A DNA stretch of 64,000 nt from Rubripirellula sp. (GTDB taxonomy: Bacteria > Planctomycetota > Planctomycetia > Pirellulales > Pirellulaceae): the NCBI GenBank assembly GCA_965216875.1, contig OZ244207.1, positions 4,960,001-5,024,000 of the forward strand, written 5' to 3'. Under the pieces are notes generated by a model that ran no database searches, was not told where the DNA came from, and worked only from the letters and a program-made list of their open reading frames with translations. Of this stretch, positions 39,389 through 46,200 are shown piece by piece; the first letter of the stretch is position 1; the number at the start of each line of letters is the position of its first letter. The position numbers and the translations under genes are program-made.

Positions 39389-40876
39389 ATGGACGCAGCA
39401 AACTCACCGCACATCGTGATCGTCGGCGCCGGTATGAGTGGGCTTTGCTTGGCGATTCAGTTGAAGCGTGCCGGCTTTCACAACATCACTCTGTTGGAAG
39501 CCTCCAGCGAAGTTGGCGGCACATGGAACAAGAACACGTACCCCAACGCGGGTTGCGACGTTCCTTCGTACCTCTATTCCTATTCGTTTGCGTCGAATCA
39601 TTGCTGGTCGATGAAGTACGCGCGCCAGCCCGAGATCCTTGACTATTTCCGGCAATGCGCCGAGCGATTCGATGTCCGGCGATCTATAAGATTCGAGACG
39701 ATGGTCGAATCGGCGACCTTTGATGAAGCGACGGGACGTTGGAAAGTACGGACCGATGCAGGCGACGAAATTGTGGCTGACGTCTTCGTGAGTGCCGTTG
39801 GCCAACTCAACCGTCCCGCGATTCCGTCGTTTCAATCGGCAGACGTGTTTGAGGGCGAAGCGTGGCACAGTGCCCAATGGAATCACGACTACGAGCTTGC
39901 AGGCAAGAACGTTGCCGTGGTCGGAAACGGTGCCAGCGCCATTCAATTCATGCCAATCATCGCCGAGCAATGCAAGAAAGTGGTGTTGTTTCAACGCACC
40001 GCAAGCTGGATCCATCCACTCCACAACTACCGTTACCCCAAGTGGGCGCAGCGATGTATGCGGTGGATACCCTTTGCGGCCAAATTACACCGACTCTCTA
40101 TCTTCCTGAGTTGCGAGTGGCGAATCGTTGCGTTCCGCGAAGGGAGCAAATTGAACAAGGAATACGCGCGTTGGTTGCGCCGCCAAATGCGAAGACGACT
40201 GCCCAATGAAGATTGGGAAAAACTGATTCCCACCTATGCACCAGGGTGCAAACGCATCCTCTTGTCGAGCGACTACCTCGAAACACTTTCTCGCGACGAT
40301 GTCGAAGTCGTCCTCGATCCGATTACCGGTTTCACCAAAGACCAGATTGTGACCGGTGAATCGAGTTACGATGTCGATGCGGTGATCTACGCAACAGGAT
40401 TTCGCGCGACCGAATTCTTGCAACCCATGACCATCCGCGGCCGCGGCGGCAAAACACTCGAGCAAGAATGGAAAGCCCGGCCCAAGGCATACCTCGGTCT
40501 TGCTGTGCCGGAGTTCCCGAACCTGTTCATGTTGTACGGTCCCAACACGAACCTCGGGCACAACTCGATCATCTATATGGTCGAGCAACAAGTCAACTTC
40601 ATCATCAAGTGCCTCAAACGCATGCGAAACCGATCGGCCAACACGATCGAAGTTCGCCGCGAAGCACTTGATCAATACGATGCTCAGGTGCAGTCGGAAC
40701 TTGCCTCATCGGTTTGGGCCGGCGACTGCACGAACTGGTACAAGTCAGCCGATGGAACGATCCCCAATAACTGGTGGGGATCGGCGATGGCCTATCGCCG
40801 CCGACTCAAGCGTCCTCGGTTCGATAACTTCAAGTTTGGAACAGCAAAGGACGCTGCCGCCAGCGGCGAGGGTTAG
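39389..40876 (+). CDS. Baeyer-Villiger-type flavin monooxygenase
   Basis: GAGMSG; GGTW...YP; FEGEAWHSAQW (FxGxxxHxxxW); GNGASA; ATGF. Confidence 0.92.
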   Translation: MDAANSPHIVIVGAGMSGLCLAIQLKRAGFHNITLLEASSEVGGTWNKNTYPNAGCDVPSYLYSYSFASNHCWSMKYARQPEILDYFRQCAERFDVRRSIRFETMVESATFDEATGRWKVRTDAGDEIVADVFVSAVGQLNRPAIPSFQSADVFEGEAWHSAQWNHDYELAGKNVAVVGNGASAIQFMPIIAEQCKKVVLFQRTASWIHPLHNYRYPKWAQRCMRWIPFAAKLHRLSIFLSCEWRIVAFREGSKLNKEYARWLRRQMRRRLPNEDWEKLIPTYAPGCKRILLSSDYLETLSRDDVEVVLDPITGFTKDQIVTGESSYDVDAVIYATGFRATEFLQPMTIRGRGGKTLEQEWKARPKAYLGLAVPEFPNLFMLYGPNTNLGHNSIIYMVEQQVNFIIKCLKRMRNRSANTIEVRREALDQYDAQVQSELASSVWAGDCTNWYKSADGTIPNNWWGSAMAYRRRLKRPRFDNFKFGTAKDAAASGEG

Positions 40877-40900: not shown

Positions 40901-42766
40901 TCACTTGATCTCAACCGTCTGGCGAAGCTGAGCTGGGGGCAAACAAAAGGTGTCACGACACACTTCGTAGTCGACCAAGACACGCAACCTCGTTGTCGCG
41001 GCAACGTCATCAACCCGGACTTTCCGACTGAATTGCGCGATCGCTTGGTAGATCTTTTCTTGTGGATTTTGCCTCGAAGGCTGGCCCTTTGAACGGGTCC
41101 ACTTTCCCAGCGGTGCGACACCGCCTGGCAAGTCGAACTTCAGTCGCACTGGAACATGGGCGCCGCCTTCAGGAACTTCCGAGTAAAGGTGCCATCCCGG
41201 TTTGATGGAGATCGTCACCTTCACGTCGTAGACGCCCGGCTGATCCTCAACCGGATCGGCGACCGTCACCATGCTTAACTGGTCCGTCGAAACCTTGTCG
41301 TCAGTCTCGAAGGTGTCCACCTTTTCTTCAGGCTTGACGTCTTTCTCAGGCTTTGCGTCCGGTGATTCTGCCGCTGAGCCCGCGGACGAAACCGCGTGCT
41401 TGGGCGCATCTGGATTCCGTCGGAAGTACCAAACTTGACTGATACGAGATTCCTTTTCGATGAACTCTTTGTTCCGCTCGCTCAGCTTTTCGAACCTACC
41501 TTGAAATGGCTTCATCGCCTCTTCGAAGGCCTCTTGATCGTAGTCCCCGGCCTCAAACTTCTTGGCAAACTCTTTTTGTACCGCTTGGCTTTCCGCCGTC
41601 AGGGCTTCAATCGCCTGCCGCACTTCTTCCTGGGCGACTTTTTCTTCGTCGGTCATCTCGCGCAGGTGATAGACGTCTGAGTAGTCGCCAACGATCAAGT
41701 CGAGCCAACCATCGTTGTCATAGTCAACAACGCAGATCTGGCTTCGAACGCCCAGTGCCGCTTCGTCGTCCTTGCCAAGGTATTGCATCTTGAACTTTGA
41801 TTCCGAACCAGCTGCGATCAGTGGTCGGTACGCTTCGAACTTTGGCTCACCTGTTGAACCTTGCGTCACGTTGCGATACCAGCCAACTGCGCCGTCACCC
41901 GAACCGACGACCAAGTCCCATTTGCCGTCGTTGTCCCAATCAGCAGCAACGGGCGCAGCGTGCATGTTGACGTGCAAGGGTTCCTCACCAACGTTCACTT
42001 GGATCGCGTCGACCGAGTACTTCGGTGTTTCGCGCGTGCCGATGTTCGTGCGCAAAAACAAGTCGCCCGAGAACGAACCTATCAAAACGTCGAGATCGCC
42101 GTCGCCATCCCAATCGACGGTCGTCGGCCAGCTTCCAAAGGTCGCGACTCGCAACGTGATTGAATCGGTATCACCAGAGTTCTGCTTCTCTTCGTCAAGC
42201 TCATTCCACTTGGCAAGCTCGACCGGATGGTGGACCAGTTCGATTCCTGACTCGTCACGAATCTTTTCGACTTCGGCATACTTGCCATCACCCAAACCGC
42301 GAAACAGATAGATGTCGCCGGGGTCGTACGAACCGCTGATCATGTCGAGCGTGCCGTCGTTGTCGTAGTCCACAAACTGTGGACTTGACGCGATGCATCA
42401 GTAAACCGGTGTCTTGGCATCGACACCACCTGCTTGAAGTTTGCCTTTGGACGTGTACTCAGGCTTTTCGTCGTTGGCCGTGTTTTCGAAGAACCAAAAG
42501 AAGCCTGGAAAATCCCCCACCAACAGATCGCGGTCACCATCACCATCGACGTCCGCCACGCAGGGTCCAGCGTGAGCAATGTTTGACAATTGACCGATGT
42601 CGATCGGCTTGCCGTCCGCTTGGATGCGAACTCCTTTGTCTAGATCGCCGACCACTCGATCTTTCGTCAAGTCCTGCTCGCCGGCGATCGCCGTTGGAAG
42701 CGCCAGCAGCCCCATCAACAGCGTGCATGAACCACGCCCCACCTTCCTCAATAACCGACAACACAT
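40901..42766 (-). CDS. Exported FG-GAP/VCBS repeat protein with C-terminal DsbD-N-like domain; in-frame TGA (42398-42400) in a U-C motif, candidate selenoprotein of 621 aa
   Basis: ORFs 42398-42766 and 40901-42373 are in one frame: KTPVY-TGA-CIASSPQFVDYDNDG; DxDGDGDxDL repeats on both sides; YEVCRDTFCLPP. Confidence 0.8.
42367..42385 (-). promoter_or_regulatory. Putative SECIS hairpin
   Basis: AGUCCACA-GUU-UGUGGACU, perfect 8-bp stem 12 nt after UGA. Confidence 0.75.
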
Positions 42767-42854
42767 TTAGGTCATCTCCCACGTGCGTGTTGCAAGAAAC
42801 GGAATTCCCACCAGAAGAAATTGTACCGGGCGCACGGCCAGCACGCTCGAATCG

Positions 42855-43757
42855 CTAGGAGCGACCCACTCCGATCTCGAGTACGCGGTTTTCGGAGGCC
42901 GAGGTCTCGATCAGCGCGGCGACTTGGGTCGCCAAATGGACATCGCCCCAGGTGATGGGGAAGGGTGTTCCGGCGAGGATTGCTTTGGCAAATTCGTGCA
43001 AAAGAGAATCCTCGGCATGCTCATCGTCGCCATTCGATGCGGCGAGCTCAGGTCCCGTCTTGCCCGGAACGTTTTGCCCCTGAACCTTTTGACCCTGTCC
43101 TTTTTCATCAAAGAGTTGGAAACGACGTTGGCTATCGACTTGAGCCGTAGCCTGAGTGCCCACCAGCGTGAGCGAATTGCATGCTTCGCCCGGAAACTTT
43201 GTGCAGGTGTCGATCAATGCCGTCGCCCCCGATGCAAAATCGAGATGTGCCTGAGCCAACCCATCTCGCAAAACGCCATAGACGCTCGAGGGTACAGAGC
43301 CGATCAACCACATCACCAAATCGAGTTGCTCAGCCAACCCTTGTTTCGGAGATTGTTGAGTGTTCGCCCATGCGTGAATCCGGATCAAGCGAGGTTCGCC
43401 GAGCTCGCCCATAAGGAGTGCCTTTTTGAGCTGAACCATCGCCGGCTCAAACCGCAACATCATCGCCGGCATCGAACGACCACTCGAGCCCATCACGGAG
43501 ATCATGTCTGGCTCAACCAGAAAGGGATCGATTGTCAATTGATGCCCGCCTCGTTGAATCATTCCCAAGTGTTCCAGCGGCGATTCCGTGACAACCGCTC
43601 GAGCCGAATCGAGATCGGTCTGAGCAGCGATCAAGCGATTCGTTGCCGCGGCCTTTTGGAGTCGTTCGCCACGATCATCTTGAACGCCAACCCAGATCGC
43701 AACTTGGCGAGTTGGATTCGAAGCGTGTTGCATTTCCCTGGGATCCATCTCGCTCAA
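42855..43757 (-). CDS. Gfo/Idh/MocA-like oxidoreductase (divergent)
   Basis: LRFEP...K..L..GELGEP and LDLVMWLIG motifs; Rossmann part appears degenerate. Confidence 0.5.
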   Translation of the reverse strand: MSEMDPREMQHASNPTRQVAIWVGVQDDRGERLQKAAATNRLIAAQTDLDSARAVVTESPLEHLGMIQRGGHQLTIDPFLVEPDMISVMGSSGRSMPAMMLRFEPAMVQLKKALLMGELGEPRLIRIHAWANTQQSPKQGLAEQLDLVMWLIGSVPSSVYGVLRDGLAQAHLDFASGATALIDTCTKFPGEACNSLTLVGTQATAQVDSQRRFQLFDEKGQGQKVQGQNVPGKTGPELAASNGDDEHAEDSLLHEFAKAILAGTPFPITWGDVHLATQVAALIETSASENRVLEIGVGRS

Positions 43758-43806: not shown

Positions 43807-46200
43807 TTATCTTACTTCAAGGTAGGGATTGATGGTTTGCGCCTTTTCGACGCCCTTGGACGTGACCTGATACCGCCCCACTTGGATGGAAACATAGCGC
43901 AGGCTCGCACACTTCGCGAGCTCGAACAAACCTTCGTCCGTGACGTTGGGCGATTCGATAATGAGGGTCTCAAGTTTTGGGGATTGGCCGAGGTGCTTGA
44001 GCCCTTCGTCACTCACCGCCACTTTGCCCAGGTAGAGTGAGGTCAGCGAGGGAATCCTGGACAAATGCAAACACGCTTGATCACCGAGTGATGGCGTATT
44101 GCGTATTTTGAGTTCTTTGAGTTCGGGCAGTTTCTGCAGGTGGATGAGGTATCGCCCCTTGATCGCTTCGGAGATCAACTCCACTTCTTTCAGCTCGGGG
44201 CAATGGGCCAGGTAAGGCAACCCCGAGCCGGTCATCAATTCCGATTGAAAATTGAGTCGCTGTAAATTCGGCAAGGCTTCAAACGCTTGCATGCCGTGAT
44301 CCGTAATCGTTGACTTTCGTGTCAGCAGGTACTCGAGTTGTGGGAACTGATTCAGTTTTTGAAATTGTCGATCGTCAAGTGACGCTGAGACAGATTCGAA
44401 TGCCGTGACATTCGGCAGCGGCTCATCAAGTTTCCAGATCGGAGCGTGGGCGACCTTGCCACGAACGGAGATGCTTTTCAACTTGGTGAGTGCTTGCAGA
44501 GGCGTCAGGTCCAAGGTGCGCTGAATCGCTTCAATCTGAACGGTTTCCAGTTGAGGCATCGACAGCATGTCGGTGATCGACCCTTGCCCCGAAAAGGGCG
44601 TTTGCCAGCGAGTGTCATTGTCAAACAGGCTGCCATGACCGTTGACGCGCATCGAAACGCCGGGATAGCGAGCCTGCAGTTGGGCAAGACCACCGCGAGT
44701 CACGGGGCAGGGCGTGATGACCAAACGCCTGAAACCCGCCGGCAACTTGAGGCCAACAAGCTCATCATCAGACAATTTCGGATCATCGACAATGAGCTCT
44801 TTCAATCCGCTCAACTCTGCAATGCGACCAAGCTGATGCGGTGCGATACGTTCGAGCCACAAGCCTTCGATTCCGCGGAGCGCGGCGACTTCGTCCAAAT
44901 CCCACGACACCTTTCCTGACGATTCAAGCTCAGGCATCACCGACGGTGGACCAGCGGTGTGCAGGTCGTACATTCGACCACGCGTGCCCAACGGTGTGAG
45001 ATGAAGGTCCGCGATCTGACCTGGCCAATGAAGCACGGGTCTGAGTCGATTGGAAAAAAACGGTCGAAGGAAAAGAAGGGGCACGACGGACAAGTTCCGA
45101 AGCTTGGCAGCTTCGATCGCCTGGGCTTGAGTTGGCGACAACTCGGTGCGAATCGTCAACTCCAAGTCAGGACGTGCCTTCGCCAAACGCTCAATCGCCT
45201 CTTTGCTAAACCGACCCGATAGCTCAACGCGTCTTAGCGGCTGCTTTGCATTGCCCACAACTTCGAGCGAGCGATCCGTCAAATTACCACTTAGCGTGAT
45301 CGATTCGATCGAGTTCATTTGCGTCAGCGACTGCGTCGCTTGATCCGAAATTCCCGAACCAATCAGATTGACCTCTTGTAACTTTCGACATCGGGCAATG
45401 CTTTCAGCGTCCTCATCACTCGCGCCAACAAATCGCGAAGCAAACAACTCGAGGTTTGGTAGAGTCGGCAGCACATCCACGAGACGCGAGGGCAAGTCGT
45501 CGGCATAGGTCAACTTTGAAACCGGACATCCATCCAGACGATGAAACTGGTCGTAGTACACGCCGGACCGAGACAAGTCGAGCTGTTGGAGGTTGGGGAG
45601 TTTCGAAACGTCACCTAGCCCCGGACCGAGCACCCCCGAACCGAGCGTCAATTCACGCAGCGAAGGTATCTTCAACAGGTGTGCAAGTCCGGCATCCGAA
45701 ACACCTGTCTCATGAATATCCAATGCCACCAGTTGTTTGCAGTTGGCAAGCGGAACGAGCCCATCGTCGGTAAGGTGCGTTCGCCAAAGTGATAAGCGTT
45801 CAAGTTGTTCCAAACGAGCGATGTACTTCATCCCCTCGTCGCCAAGATGGGAACGATTGAAGTAGGCGCGTTTCAAGTTTGACAGGTGAGTGATCGGCGC
45901 AATCGAATCGTCATTGAGCATTGGCGATCCGGCGCGAATCTGAACGGCCAAGACGAATCGCTCGGGATCGAGCTTGGCAATCCAACTTGGTCGGACGCCG
46001 ATCGTTTGAATCTCGGCACCCTTTTCGGCCAGCTGTAGACTCGCCTCATGCTGGCGATAGTAGAAGACGTAGAAGTGAAGCCAGACCGCCAGCAGGATGG
46101 CTAGAAAGGTAACCATCACCAGCAGCGTACGTAGCCGCCAGCGCAGCCCCCACTTTTTCGAGTTTGCCTTGATGTCGTGCCCCGGCACCTGCTCACTCAC
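43807..46200 (-). CDS. Membrane-anchored leucine-rich repeat protein
   Basis: WRLRTLLVMV N-terminal TM; many LxxLxL..T.VSD.GL repeats. Confidence 0.85.
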   Translation of the reverse strand: MSEQVPGHDIKANSKKWGLRWRLRTLLVMVTFLAILLAVWLHFYVFYYRQHEASLQLAEKGAEIQTIGVRPSWIAKLDPERFVLAVQIRAGSPMLNDDSIAPITHLSNLKRAYFNRSHLGDEGMKYIARLEQLERLSLWRTHLTDDGLVPLANCKQLVALDIHETGVSDAGLAHLLKIPSLRELTLGSGVLGPGLGDVSKLPNLQQLDLSRSGVYYDQFHRLDGCPVSKLTYADDLPSRLVDVLPTLPNLELFASRFVGASDEDAESIARCRKLQEVNLIGSGISDQATQSLTQMNSIESITLSGNLTDRSLEVVGNAKQPLRRVELSGRFSKEAIERLAKARPDLELTIRTELSPTQAQAIEAAKLRNLSVVPLLFLRPFFSNRLRPVLHWPGQIADLHLTPLGTRGRMYDLHTAGPPSVMPELESSGKVSWDLDEVAALRGIEGLWLERIAPHQLGRIAELSGLKELIVDDPKLSDDELVGLKLPAGFRRLVITPCPVTRGGLAQLQARYPGVSMRVNGHGSLFDNDTRWQTPFSGQGSITDMLSMPQLETVQIEAIQRTLDLTPLQALTKLKSISVRGKVAHAPIWKLDEPLPNVTAFESVSASLDDRQFQKLNQFPQLEYLLTRKSTITDHGMQAFEALPNLQRLNFQSELMTGSGLPYLAHCPELKEVELISEAIKGRYLIHLQKLPELKELKIRNTPSLGDQACLHLSRIPSLTSLYLGKVAVSDEGLKHLGQSPKLETLIIESPNVTDEGLFELAKCASLRYVSIQVGRYQVTSKGVEKAQTINPYLEVR

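Follow-up and report, generated by a model that had tools for sequence, protein, structure and literature searches.

A predicted family of exported FG-GAP beta-propeller selenoproteins with a vicinal Sec-Cys dyad in Planctomycetota

Described bacterial selenoproteins and the present locus

Bacterial selenoproteins whose selenocysteine insertion sequence (SECIS) lies in the coding region carry a UGA codon for selenocysteine (Sec, U) that is followed immediately on its 3' side by a stem-loop with a loop of 3-9 nt opening with G-U; homologues with Cys exist, and selA, selB, selC and selD are present in the genome. The gene described here is like them in each of these respects, its UGA and loop being 20 nt apart. 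It is on the minus strand of a 64,000-nt stretch of DNA from Rubripirellula sp. (GenBank assembly GCA_965216875.1, contig OZ244207.1, positions 4,960,001 to 5,024,000), which is called the window below and whose coordinates are used unless a contig position is given; the 8.26 Mb genome is a single contig. The predicted product is an exported FG-GAP beta-propeller in which Sec is adjacent to Cys and which ends in a domain resembling the N-terminal domain of DsbD (nDsbD; Pfam DsbD_N). It represents a new family in a known kind of system and not a new recoding mechanism, and is notable for its spread, its fold, the internal U-C dyad and the DsbD-N fusion.

The sequence-only reading that singled out this locus had not recognized the architecture among classical selenoprotein families, and the catalogues agree. 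Among the 119 selenoprotein families or subfamilies in Table 1 of a 2026 inventory (PMC13188914) there is no FG-GAP, VCBS or propeller entry and none with a plain U-C dyad of this kind, so that the present family would add both the fold and the internal motif to that table. No family of NCBIfam release 20 matched the window's protein at E <= 0.01, term searches in passages of deep-Sep (PMC12013277) gave nothing relevant, and the text of BSepDB (PMC13326102) together with one, possibly incomplete, supplement mentions no FG-GAP, VCBS, repeat or propeller protein. Searches of the open full-text literature, a coverage that ends at subscription journals, returned no relevant paper on FG-GAP, VCBS or UnbV selenoproteins or on selenoproteins of Planctomycetota.

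The sole precedent, and a partial one, is a supplementary table. Table S9 of Kim et al. 2016 (PMC4807772) lists planctomycete genes annotated as FG-GAP and split by TGA, three of four with a SECIS predicted by bSECISearch. These genes, matched by description only, may be members of the propeller selenoprotein family. That table gives their IMG gene identifiers only and says nothing of a motif, a family definition or a distribution; the residue aligned in the closest hit is Gly and not Cys, and the window's protein is without the UnbV_ASPIC domain. There is a possibility, which we place somewhat short of an even chance, that the locus stands for an undescribed phylum-wide family, perhaps among the commonest selenoproteins of Planctomycetota, and that it provides the first beta-propeller selenoprotein, the first bacterial enzyme with an internal vicinal Sec-Cys selenenylsulfide and a new DsbD-type reducing branch of the envelope feeding an extracytoplasmic selenium centre.

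In public annotations the C-terminal pieces of these genes go under the names 'VCBS repeat-containing protein', 'DsbD domain-containing protein' or 'hypothetical'. Because annotations cut the genes at the TGA, the size of the planctomycete selenoproteome and its selenium demand are probably underestimated.

The UGA codon, the hairpin and the decoding machinery

Two open reading frames (ORFs) of the minus strand, 42398..42766 (122 aa) and 40901..42373, are in the same frame, and the TGA at 42398-42400 is the sole break between them, as the sequence-only reading had claimed. Reading through it yields a product of 621 residues with ...KTPVY-U-CIASSPQFVDYDNDG... around residue 123 and a terminal TGA at 40901-40903. 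The gene contains only one internal in-frame TGA, and the next codon is TGC (Cys). Comparison of sequences makes it highly probable that this is one gene, the UGA of codon 123 being read as Sec by the genome's own SelA, SelB, SelD and tRNA-Sec by means of a downstream SECIS. The ribosome-binding site and signal-peptide-like N-terminus attributed to the upstream part are present, and the downstream part has, as had been stated, no export signal of its own. The N-terminus MCCRLLRKVGRGSCTLLMGLLALPTAIAGE shows, as judged by eye, the signal-peptide order of a charged stretch, a hydrophobic stretch and AxA, and the N-termini of homologues are similarly hydrophobic; from these features the protein is predicted to be exported.

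The bSECIS model (PMC13188914, legend of its Fig. 2) describes a stem of 4-16 bp, a loop of 3-9 nt with a G within its first two nucleotides, a spacing of 16-37 nt and a minimum free energy (MFE) of <= -7.5 kcal/mol. The hairpin that had been pointed out 12 nt past the UGA lies at 42367-42385 and agrees with the model, having a perfect 8-bp stem, a GUU loop, the 20-nt spacing and an MFE of -14.7 kcal/mol over the 42 nt that follow the UGA. Comparison with a SECIS model and with homologues, as proposed in the sequence-only reading, favoured the hairpin on both counts. When MFE folds were compared with the bSECIS constraints, 60 of 73 distinct Sec-form sequences (a count that excludes two regular-expression artefacts) agreed with them, as opposed to two of eight Cys-form sites. 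Most of the 13 remaining Sec-forms retain the hairpin, with a bulge, weaker energy or the G at the third loop position. The Rfam search returned no SECIS family match, its sole hit being a chance snoRNA (E = 6).

Covariation points in the same direction. When 33 Sec-form sequences are aligned without gaps, each of the five core pairs of the stem is present in 28-32 of the 32 distinct rows. The pair 21/29 is A-U in 21 rows, G-C in nine and unpaired in two; column 21 falls on the third, synonymous position of a Pro codon, and column 29 on the second base of a Val/Ala codon. The covariation score was above those of all 500 shuffles and all slid registers, a comparison that kinship among the sequences can inflate. 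Double compensatory changes also preserve the stem in variants with a different peptide: UCCAUG-UGU-CAUGGA specifies PCVMD, and the loop is UGU in PHVVD forms. Since the hairpin lies within the codons P-Q-F-V-D, RNA and protein constraints act on the same bases, and such sequences could help to train SECIS predictors.

The TGA recurs in relatives. A six-frame search of 41 relatives returned homologues with a single internal TGA, and at seven of seven TGA-bearing loci fetched from relatives other than the window's genome the TGA was in the same place with Cys next to it. In a profile search of a 401-genome sample of the phylum (match threshold E <= 1e-25) 110 genomes had a match and 104 had one containing an in-frame TGA; among the 150 matches listed, 143 contain TGA and seven do not. 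Inspection of 29 loci of this sample outside the window's genome revealed U-C in 28 and C-C in the other (L061). Over two whole-genome searches TGA-Cys was found at the identical alignment column in 35 of 35 inspected TGA-bearing loci, and in all homologues the reading frame is intact on both sides of the TGA. A species-wide scan (79 loci) gave 39 U-C loci and two C-C loci from Bacteroidota, the rest being generic FG-GAP proteins without the dyad. Two outcomes had been named beforehand as arguing against Sec, namely a TGA peculiar to one strain and Trp, Arg or Gly at this site in homologues; what was found is a TGA at one and the same column in all inspected TGA-bearing loci of the two whole-genome searches and in about half of the loci of the species-wide scan, and TGA-less homologues with Cys, mostly as Cys-Cys.

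The U-C loci of the species-wide scan are mostly labelled Planctomycetota, including Phycisphaerales, Sedimentisphaerales and Brocadiaceae. A few carry other, possibly wrong, bin labels: Verrucomicrobiales/Verrucomicrobia (L095 and L153 among them), Ca. Aegiribacteria (L103, L106) and, for one metagenome-assembled genome (MAG), 'Alcaligenaceae' (L080). These may reflect horizontal transfer or mis-binning. In L103 and L106 there is one more residue between the dyad and Pro, and the hairpin is moved by 3 nt accordingly.

Relatives without the TGA have C-C (L061, L073, L110, L111), C-Y (L016), C-A (L022) or C-L (L072) at the dyad. L072 (L072:491-1744; contig 7807122-7808234) is a 418-aa paralogue in the window's own genome; it has a further Cys five residues past the dyad (PSGCLVGFTPCVVD) and clusters with L016 and L022, which are likewise without the second Cys. 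Protein-database hits fell into those covering about 76-78% of the query, which start past the TGA and include the window's own fragment (P0002), and those covering 90-99%, which are full length. The tree alignment took in 38 of 40 full-length hits listed; 37 of these have C-C (e.g. PIYCCIGSSP) and one, P0007, has S-G. A FastTree tree of 121 rows comprises 75 UC and 42 CC sequences and one each of CY, CA, CL and SG, a Sec:Cys ratio without meaning of its own because database rows could only be full-length and TGA-free. The tree requires at least six changes between Sec and Cys, with Cys forms nested within Sec forms at several points. For comparative chemistry, the family provides a vicinal chalcogen pair in naturally occurring Sec and Cys forms.

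All four components of the Sec machinery, the lack of which had been mentioned as an argument against recoding, are present in the genome. The SelA match scored 412.9 bits; selD (249 bits) and a 645-aa frame with the SelB winged-helix domain adjoin selA. A tRNA of 71.5 bits, called tRNA-SeC by ARAGORN, has the anticodon TCA (contig 7784438-7784530). The selD, selA and selB genes are direct neighbours on the minus strand (contig 325282-328902; loci L009, L011 and L076), and the tRNA-Sec gene is far off. In the phylum sample SelA was detected in 79 of 80 tested TGA-form genomes and in all of the remaining 23, which with the window's genome amounts to 103 of 104. SelA was present in 289 of the 401 genomes overall, and the TGA form occurred in 103 of these 289 compared with one of the 112 genomes without a SelA match; the association is descriptive, with no test statistic. 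The exceptional genome, G103, is 90% complete and consists of 410 contigs. Three genomes without a SelA match at 99% completeness (G384, G370 and G295) have family matches without TGA, that of G384 being the Cys-Cys form.

Some observations weigh against the Sec assignment or reduce the force of the evidence for it. The window's hairpin by itself is not unusual: the fold of its 76 nt scores z = -1.65 and was equalled by 12 of 200 shuffles. Because the single sequence is thus not statistically exceptional, the case for the hairpin rests on its conservation in homologues. Among the matches of the phylum sample, the position of the TGA was checked in the 29 loci mentioned. The SelA association overstates its own strength because related genomes are not independent.

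The dyad, the DsbD-N domain and a possible electron path

The product matches Pfam FG-GAP_3 (PF13517; 79.9 bits, cut-off 26.9) and FG-GAP (PF01839; 34.3 bits, cut-off 22.1). Five motifs of the DxDxDG calcium-loop type start at residues 72, 133, 218, 276 and 348, and the dyad comes a short way upstream of FG-GAP repeat two, the one with DxDxDG at residue 133. Beyond the propeller, V445 and W446 are invariant or almost so across the alignments; H65 and H269 are further conserved residues. An AlphaFold2 model built from a 36-row alignment had a mean predicted local distance difference test score (pLDDT) of 86 and a predicted TM-score (pTM) of 0.69, with residues 1-33 disordered and an all-beta region at about 40-370. 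By sequence, these proteins form a large family of FG-GAP propellers of about 400 aa with predicted signal peptides, whose hallmark is the Sec-Cys dyad, replaced by Cys-Cys in Sec-free relatives. FG-GAP/VCBS propellers are abundant in such genomes and mostly of unknown function, and for this branch the Sec/Cys dyad, sometimes accompanied by DsbD-N, may serve as a functional lead.

The likeness to described FG-GAP/VCBS propellers (integrin alpha head, CRTAC1/ASPIC, ITFG2, fungal PVL lectin) consists of the DxDxDG repeats and the predicted propeller. Among solved structures, searches by Foldseek and by profile gave weak matches that depend on the repeats only (E ~1e-6; whole-model TM-scores 0.2-0.35), namely to BBSome propellers, CRTAC1, integrin alpha, ITFG2 and PVL lectin. 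With the whole model, Foldseek gave generic propeller proteins at these low scores and no functional lead. The titles of the returned structures mention no Sec/Cys dyad.

The sequence-only reading had likened the C-terminus, with its Cys pair, to DsbD-N, and this likeness holds. Residues 514-614 match Pfam DsbD_N (PF11412) with 36.7 bits against a cut-off of 25, and two orthologues score 50.4 and 46.8 bits. A three-sequence profile of the C-terminal domain matched, over the full length of the domain, the E. coli nDsbD structures 1L6P, 3PFU and 1JPE with both Cys aligned (E = 1.7e-4); phmmer with the domain against PDB sequences gave no hit. In the comparison with E. coli nDsbD (1L6P, 3PFU, 1JPE, 1VRS) IKPGWHLY corresponds to IKDGYYLY and YEVCRDTFCLPP to YQGCADAGFCYPP. 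The two differ in that the domain is here a C-terminal appendage of a soluble, predictedly exported propeller and there the N-terminus of a membrane transporter; the gap between the Cys is four residues here and five there, and the sequence match is weak.

The DsbD-N fusion was found in the window's protein and the orthologues L013, L044 and L079, and neither in the close relative L048 nor in other inspected subfamilies. Since it is confined to the subclade nearest to the window's protein, DsbD-N cannot be a family-wide recycling route. Within the subclade the fusion occurs in both U-C and C-C forms, and PF11412 was present in 54 of 120 among the protein-database matches listed, several C-C forms included. 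The window's genome contains one other DsbD_N domain, in a 912-aa protein with DsbD_N, DsbD_TM and Thioredoxin_7, the only DsbD-type protein found. Its ORF is on the minus strand at contig ~2623317-2626055 (L158:818-3556). By its domain content this protein is a candidate electron source for the DsbD-N domain of the selenoprotein.

Three observations suggest that the dyad is a redox-active vicinal selenenylsulfide: the conservation of Sec/Cys-Cys, the general use of Sec in redox reactions and the fusion to an electron-transfer domain. In the envisaged mechanism the dyad would alternate between the selenol/thiol state and an eight-membered selenenylsulfide ring and would act on a substrate of the envelope, candidates being a peroxide, a disulfide or an oxidised metalloid. 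In the window's subclade the nDsbD-like domain, carried on a flexible linker, would re-reduce the dyad, and would take up its own electrons from the thioredoxin-like domain of the single three-domain DsbD of the genome. Electrons would then pass from cytoplasmic thioredoxin through the membrane domain and the thioredoxin-like domain of DsbD to C603/C608, from there to U123-C124 and finally to the substrate. That the protein is an envelope redox centre fed by DsbD has, judging from sequence, about even odds. The joint explanation of all findings that we favour, an exported Sec-Cys propeller selenoprotein with a redox dyad and a DsbD-fed relay, seems to us slightly better than an even chance.

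Mammalian thioredoxin reductase ends in Gly-Cys-Sec-Gly, which forms an eight-membered selenenylsulfide that is re-reduced by a dithiol of another domain or subunit, and it is the closest parallel, in mechanism only, for a dyad that a Cys pair would recycle. The order is C-U on a flexible C-terminal tail in that enzyme and U-C at an internal position (123-124) on a propeller in the window's protein, which moreover is predicted to be extracytoplasmic, is not homologous, has no GCUG tail and contains no flavoprotein domain detectable with Pfam. PQQ (pyrroloquinoline quinone)-dependent methanol dehydrogenase is a periplasmic, calcium-containing propeller with a vicinal Cys-Cys disulfide over the cofactor. 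The likeness to it would be one of analogy: methanol dehydrogenase is an eight-bladed tryptophan-docking propeller without sequence kinship, and nothing points to PQQ in the window's protein.

Several findings speak against the redox couple or against the relay. The dyad is not the usual UxxC/CxxU motif, which weakens the redox reading. L016, L022 and L072, three Cys-form relatives, have Tyr, Ala and Leu, respectively, where the second Cys would be, and P0007 (462 aa), with Ser-Gly, has no dyad at all; evidently the propeller fold can function without a two-cysteine couple. P0007 is the nearest full-length relative of the window's protein in the tree and has no DsbD-N domain, and so represents a natural dyad-less variant. 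Most family members are without DsbD-N, and no conserved neighbour that might act as an alternative reductant was found in the 1.5-kb flanks of 41 loci, where the largest recurrent neighbour cluster comprised three. The confidence of the AlphaFold2 model falls to 76 around residues 121-130, the region of the dyad, and the disordered linker together with the pTM leaves the relative placement of propeller and DsbD-N unfixed in the model.

Explanations without Sec are hard to reconcile with the comparative data. Downstream hairpins can boost read-through in general, and the UGA might be passed by near-cognate insertion of Trp or Cys or by hairpin-stimulated read-through of a generic kind. We consider this very improbable: the TGA forms are nearly confined to genomes with SelA, TGA-less homologues substitute Cys, and the hairpin fits bSECIS down to its spacing and the G-U that opens its loop. 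Still less probable is a real stop, be it from a pseudogene, a sequencing error or two genes. It is true that gene callers split the locus and that public annotations give only the C-terminal fragment, but the same TGA-TGC is found over dozens of genera and in some MAGs labelled Verrucomicrobiota or Ca. Aegiribacteria, the downstream part lacks a signal peptide and yet continues an exported propeller, the frame is intact in all homologues and the genome is one contig. All three variants of the real-stop reading are in effect rejected on the comparative data.

Two other explanations accept the selenoprotein and assign the dyad a different role. In the main rival to the redox reading, an unlikely one in our estimate, the dyad is a site for soft metals or metalloids (Hg, Cu, As or Se species) and the propeller an envelope scavenger, chaperone or sensor. 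This would fit the dispensability of the second Cys in some relatives, and the only recurrent neighbour, a heavy-metal P-type ATPase-like ORF, although the latter is rare, occurring at those three of the 41 loci, two of them from near-identical relatives. It would also fit the inventory, since most of the adjacent Cys/Sec motifs in its Table 1 come from metal or organometal proteins: CU in MerB-like SaoL, HgcA and the metal-binding MbdU, and GxUC and CU in the CopZ family (PMC13188914). On the other hand, the Pfam search of the window's protein brought up no metal-binding domain, and thiol-disulfide exchange is indicated by the fusion to DsbD-N, whose Cys pair is intact in U-C and C-C forms alike. 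Less likely again is a propeller that acts as an adhesin- or lectin-like binding module, the selenenylsulfide being a structural or allosteric redox switch. Many FG-GAP proteins are adhesin- or lectin-like, vicinal disulfides serve as conformational switches in some proteins, the nearest solved folds (integrin alpha, CRTAC1, fungal PVL lectin, ITFG2) are binding proteins, and the close relative P0007 has Ser-Gly in place of the dyad. Against such a role, nothing outside the repeats except the dyad is conserved throughout the family, and Sec has been retained in many lineages over several major clades of the tree; Sec is costly, and in catalogued families it is overwhelmingly at catalytic redox or metal sites (PMC13188914).

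Gene features, neighbours and other FG-GAP frames

Features of the gene and its predicted product are collected in Table 1.

Table 1. Features of the selenoprotein gene and its predicted product, in window coordinates
Feature	Position	Strand	Remarks
Complete selenoprotein coding sequence	40904..42766	-	621 codons; codon 123 = UGA, very probably Sec; homologues cross the TGA in one frame
Ribosome-binding site GGGAG	42776..42780	-	9 nt upstream of ATG 42764-42766; read from sequence
Signal-peptide-like N-terminus, residues 1 to ~28	42683..42766	-	likely cleavage after AIA; by eye; pLDDT <50 for residues 1-33
In-frame UGA, proposed Sec123	42398..42400	-	same column in all inspected TGA-form homologues; Cys in Cys-forms
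Cys124, vicinal partner of Sec123	42395..42397	-	invariant in 8-sequence alignment A1, almost so in 36-row alignment A3
Putative SECIS core hairpin AGUCCACA-GUU-UGUGGACU	42367..42385	-	overlaps codons S-S-P-Q-F-V-D-Y
FG-GAP/VCBS beta-propeller, residues ~40-370	41657..42649	-	predicted; Pfam, AlphaFold2 pLDDT mostly >90, Foldseek/HMM matches
Long helical hairpin 373-433 and beta strands 436-448 with xVW(L/F/Y)xxR	41423..41650	-	predicted secondary structure
Low-complexity linker, residues 458-493	41288..41395	-	predicted disorder, pLDDT <50
DsbD-N-like (nDsbD) all-beta domain, residues ~497-620	40907..41278	-	IKPGWHLY; Pfam DsbD_N and nDsbD profile match
Cys pair C603, C608 in YEVCRDTFCLPP	40958-40960 (C603), 40943-40945 (C608)	-	aligned with the Cys of E. 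coli nDsbD

The gene is flanked on one side by a gene for an FMO-like flavin monooxygenase (39389-40876, plus strand), which converges on it, and on the other by a short Gfo/Idh/MocA-like ORF (42855-43757), 88 nt upstream on the same strand, followed by a gene for a 797-aa leucine-rich-repeat protein (43807-46200, minus strand). These neighbours gave no hint of an operon, and none of them recurs beside homologues.

Tandem duplicates occur in the family: L064 (G399:C4:101585-105796) has two adjacent U-C copies, and L110, from a Rikenellaceae MAG, has two C-C copies. Genome G159 of the phylum sample contains four separate TGA-containing matches. Another FG-GAP frame (row L010; G010:C22:69544-70068, locus L027) has a single in-frame TGA, ...KPKUFWWNPASDEL..., without an adjacent Cys, and is outside the family; its TGA could belong to a different recoded gene or be a real stop.

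A search of the window's protein for UnbV_ASPIC (PF07593) gave no hit, and membership in the ASPIC/UnbV family was excluded, this domain being missing. The genome has 16 UnbV_ASPIC loci, all of them elsewhere, many encoding FG-GAP proteins of ~1000 aa. Two of the UnbV_ASPIC frames are shorter (717 and 793 aa) and may be interrupted.

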